Notes under the pieces: model-generated
Told to the model about the DNA's origin: nothing
Seen by the model: only the letters and a program-made list of their open reading frames with translations
The model's database searches: none
Program-made: the position numbers and the translations under genes
Assembly (NCBI RefSeq): GCF_055900595.2
Contig: NZ_CM148325.1
Direction: 5' to 3' (one strand)
Length of the DNA: 64,000 bases
Shown: positions 952 to 10,001 of the stretch, one piece after another
Layout: each line of letters begins with the position of its first letter
Numbering within the stretch: position 1 is the stretch's first letter

Positions 952-1251
952 TTAACCAGTCTGTTTCCCTGATTGGGGTGACGTTGTTTCGACGTGCCCA
1001 CAGTGTGCGAGAGCCGGGGCTATTTGCCCGTGTTCTGGGTCGATGCGGTCATACATAAACCAATTCTGATACTTATGAAAACGGGGGTGACCAAATATCT
1101 TAATTGCAGATTCCAATGTCATCTTAGATTTGTCACGCTCATAGCCGTGATAGGTTGTGTAATTAAGCCCTACTAAATCAACAAATTGCTGTTTTGTTAG
1201 CCTTTCCGAATCTCGCATGATCGCTAACTTTTCACCTTGAGTATTTGACAT
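952..1251 (-). CDS. C: Immunity repressor, P2 C-like (99 aa)
   Basis: It has the same length as P2 C and is collinear with it as recalled (MSNT..EK..MR.SE.L..QQ..., C-terminal QIAPALAH.G..ETTSP.SG..TG). It lies next to int and is divergent from the cox-like ORF. Confidence 0.85.
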   Translation of the reverse strand: MSNTQGEKLAIMRDSERLTKQQFVDLVGLNYTTYHGYERDKSKMTLESAIKIFGHPRFHKYQNWFMYDRIDPEHGQIAPALAHCGHVETTSPQSGKQTG

Positions 1252-3266: not shown

Positions 3267-3475
3267 CCAGCAAATACACCACCAACGCACGCAAGCCAGG
3301 CAAGGAGGCACGTCATCACATTGCCGTTCTGCGCAATCTCATCATGTGCGAAATCGACGACTTTGTGGCGGGACTGGGCCAGCCGGGCGAGCCAGCAACA
3401 CCGGGCGAAATACACAAAGAACTACGCCGCCGCATAGAAAGCGCGGTGGATTACGTCATGAACCCGAACGACTGA
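3263..3475 (+). CDS. Hypothetical early protein (70 aa)
   Basis: ATGA overlap with the previous ORF. Confidence 0.5.
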   Translation: MTSKYTTNARKPGKEARHHIAVLRNLIMCEIDDFVAGLGQPGEPATPGEIHKELRRRIESAVDYVMNPND

Positions 3476-3515
3476 CCAGAACGCGAGCGCGCGCCGGATG
3501 ACGCACGCATAACGC

Positions 3516-4001
3516 TTAGCGGGAAGCGCCAACCGTAAGGCTGGCAATGATTTTTTCGGAGAGTGAGAGAGATTCGCGATGATTAAGACCAAGAGCAGCA
3601 CAAGCTTTATTGCGCGCCGGGTTGTCCATGCATTCAAGCACCGGAGAGTCCTGCTTCTCAATTTCCACCAGTCGCGCCAGCAACACCTCCGTGCTGAGAC
3701 CGTCGCTTTCAGTAATCAGGACGTTATAGCGATGAGCCTGTTCTTTTGCAGCCTGAGCGCGTCGCCCAAATTTCCAGGCGATATTGCAGCCACTAAGCAC
3801 AGCCACGATACCACCCAGCAACCAACTGAAATTGCTGTCTGCAAACACAGTAGCCCCAGACGTAAGGATGACAGCATTAATCACCGTATCCATACGGCGG
3901 TTAAACACCTCCGAAATATGTTCAAGCCAGTAACTGTTCCAGAGACGAAACATGACCTCGTGTCGCCGTTCGGCATGATTTTCAGTTGGTTGTCTGTTCA
4001 T
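3516..4001 (-). CDS. Two-TM membrane protein, SLATT-like (161 aa); opposite-strand moron
   Basis: An N-terminal helix is followed by two adjacent hydrophobic helices (VINAVILTSGATVFA, FSWLLGGIVAVLSGCNIAW). Then comes WKFGRRAQAAKEQAHRYNVL, the layout I associate with SLATT 2TM effector domains. GAGGAGGG SD. Antisense to the early operon. Confidence 0.55.
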   Translation of the reverse strand: MNRQPTENHAERRHEVMFRLWNSYWLEHISEVFNRRMDTVINAVILTSGATVFADSNFSWLLGGIVAVLSGCNIAWKFGRRAQAAKEQAHRYNVLITESDGLSTEVLLARLVEIEKQDSPVLECMDNPARNKACAALGLNHRESLSLSEKIIASLTVGASR

Positions 4002-4244
4002 TGCGGTTTAACCCTCCTCATCATCTCGCCCCTGCCCTTTTTCAGGCGCGGGAGCCGGTTGCCGTGGCACATGAAATTTATCGCTATCAGACATTTATTT
4101 TTTCCCGTGTGTTGTTGAACAAACTGCCCGCACAGTTTTGACGGAACGGCGGGCGCTTCAAGCGTAACACACCCTTCTTTTCCGGTTGAAGGCGAAAAAA
4201 ACCGGACAGCTACCCGACACAAACCAGACCAGCGGAGAACTGCC

Positions 4245-4799
4245 ATGTACGCACTTAAACCTATGGGGATACCAGGCAAAGCCCCGGCGCATGTGAAAGC
4301 CTGGACACAGCAGGAAGATGATTTGCTGATCACCCTGTACCCGCAGCACACAGCACGAGATATCGCCGGACGTCTGGGGCGCAGCTACGAAGGAGTTCGC
4401 GGCCGCATTTCTCGTCTGCGTGAACAGGGCAGGATTGGCATCAAGCAGCAAAGACTAAGCGATGAGATGATCGCCACGCTCATCAGGAACCGCCACACCA
4501 GGTCCCTCAAGGAACTGGCACACATGGCGAAAGTTTCGACACGCACGGTAACCAACCGATTGAGGGCGCTGGGCTACAGCCTGATCAAATGCGGAGAACT
4601 GCATAAAAACGCCGTCTACAGCGACTGCATCGTTGAGATTATCAACCAGTTACGCGACGAGCAGGGCCTGACGTTCAGGGAAATCGCGCAGCGCCTTAGC
4701 CACGAACTACAGCCGAACCCCACCCCGGCACTTGCTCGCCATCTCTACTGGCGCCGCACAGCAGCCGACGCCGTACTCCGCGAACTGTTACCAGATTGA
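4245..4799 (+). CDS. Putative DNA-binding protein with three HTH-like repeats (184 aa)
   Basis: It contains a Myb/SANT-like WTQQEDDLLITLY..ARDIAGRLGRSYEGVRGRISRL segment and two further HTH-like segments (SLKELAHMAKVSTRTVTNRLRAL and LTFREIAQRLSHEL). GGAGA SD. Confidence 0.55.
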   Translation: MYALKPMGIPGKAPAHVKAWTQQEDDLLITLYPQHTARDIAGRLGRSYEGVRGRISRLREQGRIGIKQQRLSDEMIATLIRNRHTRSLKELAHMAKVSTRTVTNRLRALGYSLIKCGELHKNAVYSDCIVEIINQLRDEQGLTFREIAQRLSHELQPNPTPALARHLYWRRTAADAVLRELLPD

Positions 4800-4919
4800 G
4801 CAATCACCATGTACACACAAAAAAACCGCTTGCAACAACAAACCGGAACAGGGTACGCTTCCCCCGCACCTCATAAAACGGGTGTCGGGTTTCGCAGCCT
4901 GCTGACTAGCAAAGCGCAC

Positions 4920-4940
4920 AACCGCGCCAGCGGTTTTTTT
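4920..4940 (+). terminator. Intrinsic terminator inside the leader of the replication operon
   Basis: AACCGC-GCCA-GCGGTT stem-loop followed by a U-run (7 T in total). Its 3' half and U-tract are also part of a 15-bp long-range pairing with 4816-4830. Confidence 0.55.
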
Positions 4941-4981
4941 GTGCGTACTGTATTGCCACGTCTTTTTCGCACACGAATTAT

Positions 4982-5062
4982 GGCGGGGCGTACGGGGCCG
5001 ACTTCGGTCGGGCCGGGTTCTTTGCTAGCCGGTACTGCGAACCTCGTACGTCTCGCCACCCA
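4982..5062 (+). ncRNA. C4 (P1/P7) / CI (P4)-type antisense RNA candidate, tRNA-like
   Basis: A 13-bp closing helix pairs 4982-4994 with 5045-5057 (11 Watson-Crick and 2 G-U pairs), followed by ACCCA. It encloses a C(UUCG)G hairpin (4995-5014) and a second hairpin (5016-5043). The second hairpin carries CUUUGCUAG (5020-5028) and CUGCGAA (5035-5041), which are complementary to sites on both sides of the RNA. Confidence 0.55.
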
Positions 5063-5119
5063 CAGTTTCGCAGCTCTGGATGGTGAGTTTTTAAAACTTA
5101 CTAGCAAAGAGGCCACACC

Positions 5120-5338
5120 ATGGCAAACCGCAAACAGCGCCGCGCTACTGCGGAGCATCACCACGTCCGCGCCCAAATCGACAAACGCCTTTTCCGCGCA
5201 TCACGCGTTGCACGCATCATGCACATCAACATGCTGCATGAACGCAGAGGGGCACTACCGAACACCTATATCGCCTCCGTTTTCAGCTATCTGGCGGACG
5301 ATCTCGCCGAGCTGCAACACCTCATTAACCAGCACTGA
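5120..5338 (+). CDS. Small basic protein (72 aa), in the position Icd holds downstream of c4 in P1
   Basis: The AAGAGG SD (5107-5112) lies inside the predicted antisense target a2 (5101-5110). The ORF is in a different frame from, and overlaps, the implausible 201-aa track ORF. Confidence 0.5.
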   Translation: MANRKQRRATAEHHHVRAQIDKRLFRASRVARIMHINMLHERRGALPNTYIASVFSYLADDLAELQHLINQH

Positions 5339-5782: not shown

Positions 5783-8272
5783 ATGGAGTTCGTCAGAGAC
5801 TGGCAAAAACCGCGCCCCGCTATCGGGCGCGAAGGCTTACCCGTACCTGAAACCGCACTGGATACCATCCTGAAGTGTTACCGCGCAGACGAAGAGCGCG
5901 CACTGCACGCTGAAGAGCAGGGTCATCCGCTTGCGGGCACAACCATCGGTAACGCGATCGACAAGTGGGAAGGCGCACAGGAGCGCCAGGAAGAGGCCAT
6001 CACGCTCACACAGGAAGCGAGAAGACACCCGCCCACCCTTATTGAGGAAACCCTCAAAGAGCTGGACACCCTGCCCAAGTGGTTGAGGCTGCCGCTGATT
6101 AAGCACCTGAACTTTTTAAGGCGCAAACAGGAGGACGAACAACAGAAAGGCAAGCGCGGCAAGGACACCCGCAAATATGAGCGCTTCCTGAAAAACGGCA
6201 TCCCCGCACGTCTTCGCCGTATTCGTGAGATTAACGCTCGCTTTGCACCGTTAAGTTTTCAGGCCGCTGCCATGCGCGAGAGTCTGGAAGAACTGATCAC
6301 ACTGCCGAACCTGAGCCGTGAACGCATCCAGAAAATAGCCGTACTGCTTGCCAGCGCCGTTAAAATGCATCTTGCCGACGCAATGGACAAGGCCCGCGAA
6401 ATAACAGGGAACGACAAAGACGACAACCTGAACAACTGGCTGATTGCCTACCAGTATATTGGTCGCCGTGTCCTGAAGCTGGGGATCACCCCACCATACT
6501 GGAGCGCCCTTGAACTCCGCCCCGACCGCAGAAGCCCCCCGGACGTGACACTGGTTCCGGGCGCTGTTTTGCGCCTGAACGACGCCGAATGGTGGAATAA
6601 AAAACTTCGCCAGATGCACGACGTCTGGCGTGAGGAACTTTTACGTGCAGCGGGCCTTGTATCCCGCCAGACCTCCGTTTATGTGAGCCGTGAAGCGCTG
6701 GCAGACTTCCGCGAAAAACAGGCCCGTACCCGCGATTTTCTCAAAGCGCACGACGTGGAGAACGAAGACGGCGAACGCATCAGTCTGGAAGATATCTACT
6801 ACGCCAGTACATCCAACCCGCATAACCGCCGCAACGAGATGATGGCGTGCGTTAAGGGAATGGAGCTTATCGCACAGGAACGCGGCGACGTGGCCTTCTT
6901 CGTCACGGTCACAGCCCCGTCTCGTTTTCACAGCGTCACCGACGCAGGCACGCTGAACCCGAAATACAAAGGCGCAACCGTAAAGGACGCCAGCGACTAT
7001 CTGGTTTATAACTTCTTCGCCTCCGCCCGCAAACTCATCAAAAAAGAGAAGCGGGGCTGGTACGGCATTCGCACCGTGGAGCCTCACCACGACGGCACGC
7101 CCCACTGGCACATGCTGGTATTCACAAGCCCTGAGAACGAAGAGCGCATCACGGAAATCATGTGCAATGCCGCCATTCGCGAAGACCGGGCAGAGCTGGG
7201 CGACGACATCACCCCGCGCTTCAAGTGCGAGAAGATAGATCCCGAAAAAGGCACGCCAACCAGCTACATCGCCACCTACATAGGCAAAGGCATTGACGCC
7301 GCTGCATTCGGCGACACGGATCCAAAAACAGGTAAACCGCCCGTTGACCACGAAAGCGGAAAACCTATGGCGGACACCGTGGAAAACGCCGTCGCCTGGG
7401 CGCGCCTGCATCGCATTCGCCAGTTCCAGTTCTTTGGCCTCCCTTCCCGTCAGGTGTGGCGTGAGTTCCGCCGCCTTGCCGGACAAATGGCACGCAACCC
7501 GAAGGGGCCGCAGGCACTGACCAACCCCAAAGCCGACGCCCTCCTTGTTGCAGCCGATACGGGGTGTTTTGCCAGCTACATCATGCATCAGGGCGGTGTG
7601 CTCATTCCCCGTAGTGAATATCTGGCCCGCACAGCCTACGTCACCGCAGAAGAGCCGAACAATTACAGCGAATTCCCCGAGCGCATTTACGGTATCCGCA
7701 TGCCGGAACTGGGGGAGGACTTCACGTTATGCACCCACCCGGAAGAGTGGAAAATCGTCAGAAAGGAACCGGAACCAGACAACCGCACGGGCGAGGGTTT
7801 TGACCTTCAGGGCGGCCCCGCCGCCCCTTGGACTCGTGGCAATAACTGTCACCCTGACGAAAAAACAACCAACAACAGCACACAAACAGAACAGTCAGAG
7901 TGGGCAAAACTGCCCCCCTTACCCCCATCGTCGGACGGTTTTGTGAGCTGGTTTAAGTCGCTTAAGAGGCCGGACAGGAAAAAACTACAAAGATTGCTCA
8001 AAAAACGCACCGAAGAGAGTCGCCAGAACGCCAGCGGCGGCACCGACACACCCACCGACACCATTAACCTGGGCGTTGTGCTGCCGGAACTGCCGGAAAT
8101 CGTGCAAGTCCGCCGCGATCTGGAAGCGCTGGGCGCGGACTTCCCCGAAGCAATGGCCCATTCCGTCTTTATGGGTGCCCGCGTTCGTCTGGGTGACGGT
8201 CGCACCGTTCACCGCGACGAGCAGACCGGGCGCATCACCGTCACCAGTCTGCAACCGGAGGCGAAACCATGA
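5783..8272 (+). CDS. A: Rolling-circle replication initiator endonuclease, P2 gpA family (829 aa)
   Basis: HUH-type metal motif EPHHDGTPHWHMLVF and tyrosine motif TSYIATYIGK. Same position and size class as P2 A. Confidence 0.9.
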   Translation: MEFVRDWQKPRPAIGREGLPVPETALDTILKCYRADEERALHAEEQGHPLAGTTIGNAIDKWEGAQERQEEAITLTQEARRHPPTLIEETLKELDTLPKWLRLPLIKHLNFLRRKQEDEQQKGKRGKDTRKYERFLKNGIPARLRRIREINARFAPLSFQAAAMRESLEELITLPNLSRERIQKIAVLLASAVKMHLADAMDKAREITGNDKDDNLNNWLIAYQYIGRRVLKLGITPPYWSALELRPDRRSPPDVTLVPGAVLRLNDAEWWNKKLRQMHDVWREELLRAAGLVSRQTSVYVSREALADFREKQARTRDFLKAHDVENEDGERISLEDIYYASTSNPHNRRNEMMACVKGMELIAQERGDVAFFVTVTAPSRFHSVTDAGTLNPKYKGATVKDASDYLVYNFFASARKLIKKEKRGWYGIRTVEPHHDGTPHWHMLVFTSPENEERITEIMCNAAIREDRAELGDDITPRFKCEKIDPEKGTPTSYIATYIGKGIDAAAFGDTDPKTGKPPVDHESGKPMADTVENAVAWARLHRIRQFQFFGLPSRQVWREFRRLAGQMARNPKGPQALTNPKADALLVAADTGCFASYIMHQGGVLIPRSEYLARTAYVTAEEPNNYSEFPERIYGIRMPELGEDFTLCTHPEEWKIVRKEPEPDNRTGEGFDLQGGPAAPWTRGNNCHPDEKTTNNSTQTEQSEWAKLPPLPPSSDGFVSWFKSLKRPDRKKLQRLLKKRTEESRQNASGGTDTPTDTINLGVVLPELPEIVQVRRDLEALGADFPEAMAHSVFMGARVRLGDGRTVHRDEQTGRITVTSLQPEAKP

Positions 8273-8679
8273 ACCGTTATCATTGTGTACTGCCGCGCCA
8301 CTACTTCGGTCAGATTATGCGCTCGCGTATTCCGGCGGTCACGCTGCGAAACCTGAGCACGGTACCGCAGCCGGGCGATGAGCTGGAAATCGCCGTAGCA
8401 GGCCCTGACCGTTCAGCCAGCTGCGTGACCGCCGACGTGCTGAACGCCGTGCCCGTAGGTGGTGACTGGCTGGTTGCCATCCGCTTCCGCCAAGACCCGT
8501 TCGCACCTGAACCGCTCACCCCCGCAGGCCGCATCATGCAGAACTGGCGGGATGAACGCGCGAAGGCGAACTGCGAAAAACTGATTAACAGGATTGCCAC
8601 GACAAACCGACATGCCGCGCTGGCGCGCCGGATATACCCCGCAAAATCAACACAACCAACAGGAGTAAAAGGCCCATGA
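8269..8679 (+). CDS. Hypothetical protein (136 aa), possibly with an ASCH/DUF3850-like PUA fold
   Basis: ATGA overlap with the A stop. The N-terminus HCVLPRHYFGQIMRSRIPAVTLRN....PGDELEI resembles the ASCH-type pattern. This is a weak, by-eye call. Confidence 0.45.
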   Translation: MNRYHCVLPRHYFGQIMRSRIPAVTLRNLSTVPQPGDELEIAVAGPDRSASCVTADVLNAVPVGGDWLVAIRFRQDPFAPEPLTPAGRIMQNWRDERAKANCEKLINRIATTNRHAALARRIYPAKSTQPTGVKGP

Positions 8680-8822
8680 AAAGAATCGCCGGAACTGACT
8701 ACCAGGAGCTGCTTAAAGCGGTGGAAAACTACCGTTCAGCGCTGGTGTGGTGTGAGATTAAGCCCTGTGACCCGGGAGCAGTTAAGGATTGCAACCGGCG
8801 CGTGAGGACATTCAGCGCGTAA
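8676..8822 (+). CDS. Small hypothetical protein (48 aa, MKRIAGTDYQELLKAVENYRSALVWCEIKPC...)
   Basis: ATGA overlap with the upstream ORF. Below the track cut-off. Confidence 0.35.
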   Translation: MKRIAGTDYQELLKAVENYRSALVWCEIKPCDPGAVKDCNRRVRTFSA

Positions 8823-8937
8823 TTGGCTACCGCTATGTAGCAGCCATTATTGACCTTGTGAATGAACTGGAGGAAGCAAAAGAGCGCATCGCAGAACTGG
8901 AAACCCAGAATAACCCCAACCAGCAGGAGCAGAAGCC

Positions 8938-9519
8938 ATGAAAAAAAGAGACCTTAAAAAACACCTCCGTAGTCAGATTGAATATTTTGAAGATAAGGCT
9001 GCAAAAACAGGGCTTTCCGGTAAAGAGAACATGAACTTCAGGGCACACCTCCTGACGTGGAGAATACTTAATATCACGAGAGATGGACTTGAGCCGCTAG
9101 CCTACCTGATGGAAGATGGCGAGACCCTCATACAGGATCCCAATGTGGAAATGGAGAAGAAAGAGATGGACCTGCCGATAATCGGGCTGTTTGAGATCCC
9201 TGAACTAATAGGACGTTATGAACACGAAAACCGCCAGCTTGCCGCCTTTTTATCCGTGACAATCGAACGACTGGAAACCGTGAAACACGATATTCCGTTC
9301 GGTTTTGATGAGCGCACCGAGGGTGATTTGCTCAGCTTTCAGATTGCCCTGAACGTGCTCACCGCAGAGCCTTCTGCGTGGCTACGCCCGGAACGGCACC
9401 ACAACACGTTCGCATTTACCGTAATTCCCTACGATGCCGCACAGGAAGAGGATAACTTCGAGACCAGGCTTGTTCCCCTGTATCAGATTGCGGATTTCTA
9501 TACGTTGATTCGCTGGTAA
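8938..9519 (+). CDS. Hypothetical cargo protein (193 aa), no recognisable domain
   Basis: AGGAG SD, visibly AT-rich codon usage compared with its neighbours, and a strong terminator after it. Confidence 0.55.
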   Translation: MKKRDLKKHLRSQIEYFEDKAAKTGLSGKENMNFRAHLLTWRILNITRDGLEPLAYLMEDGETLIQDPNVEMEKKEMDLPIIGLFEIPELIGRYEHENRQLAAFLSVTIERLETVKHDIPFGFDERTEGDLLSFQIALNVLTAEPSAWLRPERHHNTFAFTVIPYDAAQEEDNFETRLVPLYQIADFYTLIRW

Positions 9520-9534
9520 TCCCCCACAGTAAAA

Positions 9535-9557
9535 CAGCCCGACCGGGCTGTTTTTTT
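9535..9557 (+). terminator. Intrinsic terminator
   Basis: CAGCCC-GACC-GGGCTG followed by TTTTTTT. Confidence 0.7.
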
Positions 9558-9614
9558 ATCTGATATTTTTGATAACGTTGACCGGCTCATTAGCAAAAAA
9601 GCAAAGAGGAAAAC

Positions 9615-10001
9615 ATGAAAGCCCGTATCGGGATCATCCCGGAAAAAGCCCTGCGCCAGCACCTGATTGATATTGCCAGAGGGAAGCGAAAACCACAGCC
9701 CGACGAGCCAAAGGTATGGTTTTCATCCATCAATGCGGCAGGCCAGACGCTGAGCAATGAAAATATCGCCCTTCTGCGTCTTATGAATGAGGAGAAGCCG
9801 CAGACCATGACCGCACTTGCGGAGTTATCCGGCAGAAAACTGAGCAACCTGTCTGTAACCCTGAAAATGCTGAGCAGCTACGGTTTTGTCAGTCTGGAAA
9901 AGAAAGGGAATACTGTACACCCGAAAGCACTTTTTACCGATTTTGAAATCATCGTTGATCCGTCCGTGGGTTCAGTACATCGCGCCACCGCCCGGCCCTG
10001 A
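9615..10001 (+). CDS. Winged-HTH (MarR/ArsR-like) DNA-binding protein (128 aa)
   Basis: AAGAGG SD. The segment NIALLRLMNEEKPQTMTALAELSGRKLSNLSVTLKMLSSYGFVSLEKKGN is a typical wHTH. It is a single-gene unit between two terminators. Confidence 0.55.
   Translation: MKARIGIIPEKALRQHLIDIARGKRKPQPDEPKVWFSSINAAGQTLSNENIALLRLMNEEKPQTMTALAELSGRKLSNLSVTLKMLSSYGFVSLEKKGNTVHPKALFTDFEIIVDPSVGSVHRATARP

Follow-up and report, generated by a model that had tools for sequence, protein, structure and literature searches.

RexB of phage lambda together with RexA, SieB of P22 and lambda and SieA of P22 are membrane proteins of the immunity region that serve in exclusion or abortive infection. Another group of membrane proteins is formed by the families SLATT_1 to SLATT_6, represented by the CBASS two-transmembrane (2TM) effectors, the SLATT protein of DRT10/UG17 and accessory proteins of RADAR and DRT3, which share a plan of one helix, a hairpin of two transmembrane (TM) segments and a further helix. 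SLATT proteins are predicted to be pore-forming effectors and occur in CBASS and RADAR, and DRT10 depends on its SLATT gene for defence (PMC9226505; bioRxiv 10.64898/2026.04.29.721553), and the way in which they are switched on has been described as an open question (bioRxiv 10.64898/2026.04.29.721553). Here we analyze a 64,000-nucleotide stretch of Escherichia coli DNA (contig NZ_CM148325.1 of RefSeq assembly GCF_055900595.2; the window, taken at its full length) that carries, at positions 3516-4206, a leader, a proline-rich micro-open reading frame (micro-ORF) and the gene for a SLATT-like two-pass membrane protein. This cassette of ~0.7 kb, encoding one membrane protein and one peptide of 22-46 residues, is a self-contained accessory unit of temperate phages and was found in unrelated temperate phages, adjoining the immunity region each time.

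The start of the window lies inside a P2-like (Peduoviridae-type) prophage. Positions 3300-4900 match E. coli CM2 at 100% identity and eight further complete E. coli genomes at 98%, and any match to this region was found in only 10 of 5426 complete E. coli genomes. In an annotated relative, the gene order runs from the integrase (int) through a C-type repressor into a plus-strand early operon that extends to the replication endonuclease gpA, and one minus-strand 'hypothetical protein' maps exactly onto positions 3516-4001. A preliminary description of the window had placed there a 161-aa minus-strand ORF with its own strong Shine-Dalgarno (SD) sequence, amid early genes on the plus strand; coordinates, strand and SD are correct, and the plus-strand orientation of the surrounding genes holds up to gpA. 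The region of ~240 bp between the main ATG and the next gene upstream, a helix-turn-helix (HTH) gene, was described as untranslated, which has to be revised, as it consists of a translated 28-aa ORF, a 112-nt structured leader and ~38 nt; the leader ORF that had been listed as possible proved to be real, judging by its presence across clades and the signs of purifying selection on it. The features of the cassette and the ORF that overlaps it are as follows.

3516-4001, minus strand: main gene, 161 aa, predicted two-pass inner-membrane protein (ORF call, codon-position test, AlphaFold, SLATT links)
4008-4094, minus strand: micro-ORF, 28 aa, MSDSDKFHVPRQPAPAPEKGQGRDDEEG (cross-clade presence, codon-position differences)
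4012-4019, minus strand: SD sequence of the main gene, GAGGAGGG, within the 3' end of the micro-ORF (sequence)
4095-4206, minus strand: structured leader/promoter module, 112 nt (covariation of helices A, B and D)
3579-4118, plus strand: shadow ORF, 179 aa, not a gene (codon-position test, stops in relatives)

Because the 179-aa plus-strand ORF overlaps the 161-aa minus-strand ORF, the coding strand needed testing. The minus-strand ORF starts with an ATG at 4001, 10 nt downstream of the strong SD. Across eight orthologues, pairwise differences at codon positions 1, 2 and 3 of the minus frame were ~0.15-0.41, 0.09-0.30 and 0.34-0.66, respectively; this preponderance of third-position substitutions indicates that the 161-aa ORF is a real gene. 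The variable position 3 of the minus frame corresponds to position 1 of the plus-strand ORF, and in relatives the plus-strand frame is interrupted by up to 22 stops. The plus-strand ORF is therefore a shadow ORF. By the same kind of comparison, both the main gene and the micro-ORF are under purifying selection. An instance of wrong-strand annotation is found in the Yersinia phage vB_YenM_42.18 (NC_070913; L070, the L numbers denoting compared loci and contigs), where the shadow strand is annotated as coding sequence gp08 at 3812-4477 and both the SLATT-like gene and the micro-ORF are unannotated.

The main protein (WP_032353759, annotated as hypothetical) on its own matches only phrog_6315, a family of unknown function. 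Hydropathy places a hydrophobic hairpin at residues ~38-55 (TM1) and ~59-77 (TM2). The AlphaFold model, computed from an alignment of 45 sequences (pLDDT 85.5, pTM 0.78), has helices at residues 5-53, 59-101, 104-115, 123-136 and 147-156, forming a long helical hairpin with the two hydrophobic segments at its tip, followed by three short helices. The N-terminal helix, the tight TM hairpin and the following helix of the preliminary description are thus seen in both hydropathy and model. Arginines R35 and R36 precede TM1, R80, R81 and K85 follow TM2, and the loop between the TM segments comprises three residues; given this charge distribution, the positive-inside rule predicts an N-in/C-in topology with both termini in the cytoplasm. 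The domain plan comprises an N-terminal cytoplasmic helix, TM1, TM2 and a helical cytoplasmic C-terminal domain (residues 78-156). Two closely spaced TM helices with flanking N- and C-terminal helices constitute the SLATT core architecture.

Close homologues of the protein are few and enterobacterial, and an exhaustive profile search retrieved 202 cluster representatives at E<=0.001, 94 of them at E<=1e-10. Members of this unannotated family are almost all stand-alone proteins of 150-170 aa encoded in temperate phages. When 125 diverse members were scanned individually against profile libraries, 56 matched the NCBIfam model SLATT_4 below its threshold (best E 8.6e-7), 19 matched SLATT_1 and three matched SLATT_fungal; unrelated models were matched by at most three members each, except for a mobilome 2TM model with seven. 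The SLATT_4 matches are colinear, spanning profile positions ~3-106 of 154 and covering the N-terminal helix, both TM segments and the following helix. Individual scoring of ten relatives gave SLATT_4 values of up to 25.3 bits (E=1.1e-5), and all scored matches remained below threshold. Among the PADLOC models, the CBASS '2TM effector' was matched by 11 members and the reverse transcriptase-associated SLATT models by eight, and nr lists one member of the family as 'SLATT family 5'. A Pfam ATP-synt_I match (19 bits, below cut-off) was dismissed as a TM-hairpin artefact. Foldseek searches of BFVD with the model returned SLATT-named proteins at ranks 1, 2, 5, 6, 7, 11, 13 and 15 (probability ~1, E 0.008-0.09); ten of the top 25 matches were SLATT-named (probability 0.87-1.0, TM-score 0.35-0.63, E 0.008-0.24). 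Searches of the PDB with the model yielded generic helical bundles only, and a solved SLATT structure for comparison was not found there.

Four independent lines, each weak alone, suggest remote homology or fold similarity to SLATT. From the earlier SLATT-type assignment, the architecture and the superfamily-level similarity survive, whereas the curated threshold of every SLATT family is missed. In our reading, the window protein probably represents a divergent branch of the SLATT superfamily that no profile model covers yet, and it is not a member of a defined SLATT family. Like the described SLATT systems, the cassette resides on mobile elements and in conflict-type neighbourhoods, and it is linked to them by the family-wide sub-threshold matches to SLATT_4, SLATT_1 and PADLOC models and by top fold matches that bear SLATT names. 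In contrast to them, its protein stays below curated thresholds, has no SMODS, SLOG, TIR, SAVED or reverse-transcriptase partner, carries its own conserved C-terminal helical domain of ~55 aa and is preceded by a conserved proline-rich micro-ORF.

The micro-ORF ends 6 nt before the main ATG. Compared with the locus of E. coli AVS0542 (L002), which shares 80% DNA identity, it has accumulated eight synonymous and two non-synonymous changes, and among seven enterobacterial loci the differences at codon positions 1, 2 and 3 amount to 0.10, 0.065 and 0.40. A micro-ORF of 22-46 codons, ending 6-15 nt before the main start, was present in every clade examined, in most of them with a shared core H-x3-[RK]-P-x-P between variable N-termini and tails. 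The sequence reads MSDTDKFHVPRKPAPSPEK... in Enterobacter, Pantoea and Kosakonia, MKIEKEERSHVPPRPTPQPKPR in Haemophilus and Pasteurella, ...FHILHKPAPPEE... in the Yersinia phage, and ...FHVLPRPAPAPQP... or ...LHALHRPYSP... in several metagenomic clades; in Providencia phage PSTNGR2lys, where the micro-ORF is annotated, it reads ...NPKPIRPTPPPPS..., with R-P-x-P but without a histidine at that spacing. The sole exception is one E. coli lineage (viral contigs L025-L027, protein P0017) with a frameshifted, truncated micro-ORF and an unusually diverged TM hairpin in the main protein, which may reflect decay of the cassette or co-variation of both partners. The peptides have no Pfam family match. 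By these comparisons, the micro-ORF is the most conserved feature of the locus and the sole conserved partner of the main gene. It is missed by gene callers.

Since the SD of the main gene lies inside the 3' end of the micro-ORF, translational coupling of the two frames is suggested. In predicted folds of 23 loci, the probability that this SD is unpaired ranged from 0.33 to 1.0, with most values at 0.5-0.8. The idea of a leader peptide that unmasks the main SD was rejected, as a conserved masking structure was not found. The distance from the motif to the micro-ORF stop varies between 5 and 16 residues. In Pasteurellaceae and one other clade (L003, L014, L034, L035, L036), a second proline-rich micro-ORF follows directly after the main stop, for example MAEPTPSQESYQPKRPTPPPKK, MYSPKPGGHVPPRPRPPKPK... 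and MYSPKPGGHVPPRPRPPKPKVYTEC; in L003 (~6485-6553), its start overlaps the main stop (TAATG). The window has no second micro-ORF.

Short frames that precede membrane-protein genes are known from other systems. In the hok/mok/sok system, as here, a short frame ends beside the start of a membrane protein, making coupled translation probable; the cassette protein, however, is three times larger and has a predicted folded cytoplasmic domain, the sequence of the upstream peptide is itself conserved, which would be unexpected for a mere coupling device, and an antisense RNA was not identified. The micro-ORF, with its conserved Arg/Lys-Pro-x-Pro core and selection at the amino-acid level, is a short upstream ORF like those of arrest peptides and regulatory leaders such as SecM, MifM, the RAPP-type ApdA and ApdP and the proline-codon leader mgtL. 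RAPP-type peptides depend on Arg and Pro and lie upstream of membrane-related genes (PMC10951233, PMC7897499, PMC10987492). In the cassette the motif is R-P-A-P and not R-A-P-P, and the window copy lacks consecutive prolines. Further differences from arrest peptides are the variable distance between motif and stop, the missing SD-masking hairpin, the lack of a signal or TM segment in the peptide and the second copy downstream in some clades. Literature searches aimed at these two points turned up no description of a SLATT gene with a conserved upstream proline-rich ORF or of proline-rich arrest peptides in prophage defence.

The 112-nt leader upstream of the micro-ORF contains two interleaved helices, A and B, and a third helix, D, which links the sequence right after helix B to a CA-rich tract just before the micro-ORF SD.

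4200-4206 with 4181-4187: helix A, interleaved with B
4188-4192 with 4173-4177: helix B, interleaved with A
4166-4172 with 4107-4113: helix D, GTGTGTT/AACACAC in the window, enclosing hairpin C
4149-4156 with 4126-4131: hairpin C, variable
4100-4106, minus strand: SD-like GGGAAAA in the 3' part of the leader

For helices A and B, counting pairs on a trimmed alignment of 27 loci gave 86.5% paired cells, compared with 25-46% when the partners were slid; 9 of 11 pairs showed compensatory changes, and none of 500 shuffles scored as high. For helix D, whose arms read GCGTGTT/AACACGC in L025, TTGTGGT/ACCACAA in L007, GGTAGA/TCTACC in L052 and AGTGGT/ACCACT in L062, a duplex permutation test showed that a locus's own arms outpair arms exchanged between loci in 5000 of 5000 permutations. 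The leader has no Rfam family match, and its pattern occurs once in the window. Wobble counts for helices A and B (A.C 6 vs G.T 2) came from one set, a larger set being uninformative on the strand; on the opposite strand, the loop lengths of A and B would suit a classical H-type pseudoknot. The element may act as an RNA, as a promoter/operator or as an insulator. We reject the idea that it is the Pe/Pc switch of the phage itself, as the C-cox intergenic region of the window lacks its motifs and the pattern is unique in the window, and a role as a 186-type CII-dependent establishment promoter seems unlikely, because no CP76/CII gene was seen in the window or in Salmonella phage SEN5.

An exact-pattern scan located the leader in 67 viral contigs (L072-L138). 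Ten of these carry the micro-ORF together with the SLATT-like gene, and in the 67 contigs neither ever occurred without the other; in at least 53, the leader is followed by other small first ORFs (58-160 aa, no Pfam match), which fall into at least 12 unrelated families. Wherever any of these genes was detected, the leader faces C and int, with C following at a distance of 0.8-2.5 kb, and runs against gpA and cox, as exemplified by SEN5 (L139, leader at 3501-3602). The shared leader, the constant orientation and the interchangeable cargos define an antisense slot that recurs in the early operon of Peduoviridae, and the SLATT-like cassette is one of its cargos. The same kind of A/B element stands beside the cassette in lambdoid Haemophilus and Providencia phages. 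The position on the opposite strand and the conserved leader argue for independent transcription of the cassette. The copies from Haemophilus and Providencia show near-consensus -10 elements; the consensus scan of the minus strand of the window revealed just a weak terminator-like site.

In Haemophilus and Pasteurella prophages (L003, L010, L014, ~5900-5965), the interval that separates the A/B element from the micro-ORF contains a sigma-70 promoter close to consensus (TTGTAT-17 nt-TATAAT). The direct repeat TGCGACTACA occurs on both sides of this promoter, and its two copies look like putative operator sites; analogous repeated CCCCAACA or CCACAAC motifs occur in L034-L039 and in the Providencia phage (L071).

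The position of the cassette varies with the phage. In P2-like prophages of Enterobacter and Kosakonia, it lies between cox and C in the orientation of C and int; in Pantoea, Yersinia and the window, it lies within the early operon on the opposite strand; in Pasteurellaceae lambdoid prophages and Providencia phage PSTNGR2lys, it has cI on one side and the early-left operon on the other and is oriented against both flanks. Isolated, viable phages carry it, and its hosts include E. coli, Yersinia, Providencia and Pasteurellaceae. Among the protein-coding neighbours, conservation is limited to phage core genes, the rest being variable phage genes, and among ~40 contexts none had a SMODS/CD-NTase, SLOG, TIR, SAVED or reverse-transcriptase neighbour. 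The absence of any enzyme or sensor neighbour in these contexts bears out the earlier view of a stand-alone protein without an obvious sensor, and the further view of an accessory gene (moron) that runs against the early operon around it is borne out by the patchy presence and by the replacement with other cargos at the same leader. The neighbours of the cassette are listed here.

952-1251, minus strand: C-type repressor (annotated relative)
4245-4799, plus strand: divergent multi-HTH regulator, 184 aa, phrog_323 (neighbour only, outside the cassette)
5783-8272, plus strand: replication endonuclease gpA (annotated relative)

The HTH protein, with three HTH-like segments and a phrog_323 label of 'D5-like' regulator, had been named as the nearest partner candidate, which we reject, because its gene is absent from orthologous and distant loci: from E. 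coli AVS0542, where the cassette directly abuts the isrK/C4 region described below, from IMG/VR contig L019 and from all other contexts. Its absence from the AVS0542 locus makes it a lineage-specific insertion and not a partner. As the gene starts 38 nt from the outer end of the leader, its promoter region overlaps the upstream boundary of the cassette.

Further into the early operon, Rfam models identify the Hfq-binding small RNA isrK at 4866-4940 (plus strand, 63 bits, above the gathering score), the C4 antisense RNA at 4976-5063 (plus strand, 83 bits) and a weak c4 a1/b1 target match at 4853-4905 (plus strand); the 3' end of isrK accounts for a terminator-like hairpin on the plus strand at 4920-4935. 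The stretch 4853-5063, which lies just 5' of a 72-aa ORF (5120-5338), a 122-aa ORF and gpA, is an RNA module like P1 immI and Gifsy-1 IsrK within a P2-like early operon. In lambdoid phages of Pasteurellaceae (L003-L016, ~6900-9900), the genes between the cassette and cI differ from phage to phage and include, on the cI side, defence-type genes (GmrSD_N with HEPN, DUF4365 with an unknown gene, PDDEXK_GAPS4 with two unknowns, and an RNase_T exonuclease), so that this interval looks like a cI-adjacent defence hotspot.

The reading that we favour, with a rough probability of 0.4, is that of a membrane effector expressed in the lysogen, whose level or gating would be set by the proline-rich peptide and which would act in abortive infection or exclusion. 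In other systems, SLATT proteins are predicted to form pores and DRT10 needs its SLATT gene, and a membrane effector of the lysogen is therefore favoured. In the lysogen, Pe would be repressed by C, leaving a unit that faces Pe free to be transcribed, and the promoter/leader of the cassette would give rise to a bicistronic mRNA. The micro-ORF and the main gene would be translated in tandem, with ribosomes that end the micro-ORF starting the membrane protein 6 nt downstream. The membrane protein may then reside in the inner membrane as a closed oligomer with both ends in the cytoplasm, its activity being set or gated by the peptide. The peptide could be a labile antidote with a binding site on the conserved cytoplasmic C-terminal domain or, alternatively, a translation-sensitive nascent chain. 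When another phage infects and disturbs host transcription or translation, the membrane protein would be released and the cell depolarized, so that the infection is aborted or excluded; upon induction of the prophage itself, convergent transcription from Pe would silence the cassette. The orientation with C and int, against Pe-driven transcription, fits expression in the lysogen without proving it.

Several observations weigh against this proposal. The window protein has no match in Pfam or PADLOC, and the Pfam check against SLATT families that the preliminary description had proposed gave no SLATT match for it; against NCBIfam SLATT_4 it scores 12.5 bits (cut-off 55; E=0.099), which is at the level of chance. 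All structural E-values exceed 0.001, and by hydropathy the hydrophobic segments are just moderately hydrophobic. A sigma-70 consensus scan of the minus strand gave no promoter, and the predicted folds of the 23 loci share no helix that masks the main SD. The gating role of the peptide is purely what we infer, and the second micro-ORF is more in line with a trans-acting peptide than with a classical leader, proving neither. Considering that the shared leader drives many unrelated small soluble cargos, the slot alone does not imply defence.

Different functions were weighed against the same evidence. Like RexB, SieB and SieA, the cassette protein is a small, predicted inner-membrane protein encoded next to the repressor gene, apparently from its own promoter and independently of lytic transcription, although no sequence or profile similarity to them was found and, in place of a RexA-like partner, the cassette has a micropeptide. 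P22 SieA, T4 Imm and HK97 gp15 block the entry of phage genomes. The protein could likewise be a non-lethal exclusion factor that keeps incoming genomes out without forming a pore or killing the cell, as would suit a small two-pass prophage protein of predicted N-in/C-in topology beside the immunity region with no sensor partner; we consider this unlikely, although it is the strongest of the alternatives, since no relatives can be detected other than the SLATT and 2TM effectors that belong to suicide-type systems and a constitutive blocker would not obviously need a strictly conserved, co-translated micropeptide. Somewhat less probable still is a role in the phage's own life cycle, where the membrane-anchored protein and the peptide would modulate the choice between lysis and lysogeny or the way in which lysogeny is established, for example through membrane proteases or division. 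The cassette adjoins the switch and points with C and int, the other cargos that share the leader look like regulators and not like toxins, and FtsH and RseP, both membrane proteases, degrade the CII regulator of phage 186 (PMC7708051). Yet the distribution of the cassette is rare and patchy, with 10 carriers in 5426 complete E. coli genomes; unrelated cargos can take its place, and it occurs in both P2-like and lambdoid phages, whose switches differ. Such a pattern is typical of accessory genes and not of core regulators. To a sensorless immune or toxin module, in which the micropeptide or nascent chain and the structured leader RNA would couple the translation state of the host to a SLATT-type pore, we assign about the same low likelihood.

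The tight coupling of the small upstream ORF (6-15 nt) and its strict linkage to the membrane protein gene would also be expected of a toxin-antitoxin-like addiction module that stabilizes the prophage, with a membrane toxin and a short-lived peptide or a hok/mok-like coupling as antidote; the lineage with the frameshifted micro-ORF has a diverged TM region, as expected if the loss of one partner relaxes the other. This explanation seems improbable, given that proteins of 150-170 aa with a conserved cytoplasmic domain are unlike type I toxins of <60 aa, that no antisense RNA was identified and that an integrated prophage gains little from post-segregational killing. Least probable is that the peptide itself is the key product, targeting ribosomes or chaperones in the manner of proline-rich antimicrobial peptides, with the SLATT-like protein as export pore or immunity factor. 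Some clades do encode two such peptides flanking the membrane gene, and, by eye, we take the core (S/F)HVP(P/R)(R/Q)P(T/A)P to resemble the YLPRPxPP core of oncocin and pyrrhocoricin; this likeness may reflect just a shared polyproline-II composition, and the peptides have no signal or leader sequence, tails that range from acidic to basic, no family match and no accompanying genes for modification or export.

Known already are the kind of protein, i.e. the SLATT superfamily, and the frequent presence of prophage morons beside immunity genes. The stand-alone, unmodelled SLATT branch, its pairing with a proline-rich micro-ORF and the covarying leader of the Peduoviridae antisense slot look new. 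The SLATT proteins reviewed act in larger systems (CBASS, reverse-transcriptase systems and RADAR), and this family represents a much simpler case. Whatever its function, the cassette is useful for the annotation of P2-like prophages, as it draws attention to a conserved antisense slot whose shared, covarying leader drives many unknown small genes, to an overlooked micro-ORF and to a case of annotation on the wrong strand. If the sensorless module were true, it would be a stand-alone SLATT protein controlled by a co-translated peptide and not by a nucleotide second messenger. If the peptide gates the pore, the cassette would be a tractable model for how SLATT proteins are activated and would represent a two-component toxin or immunity unit of a new kind.

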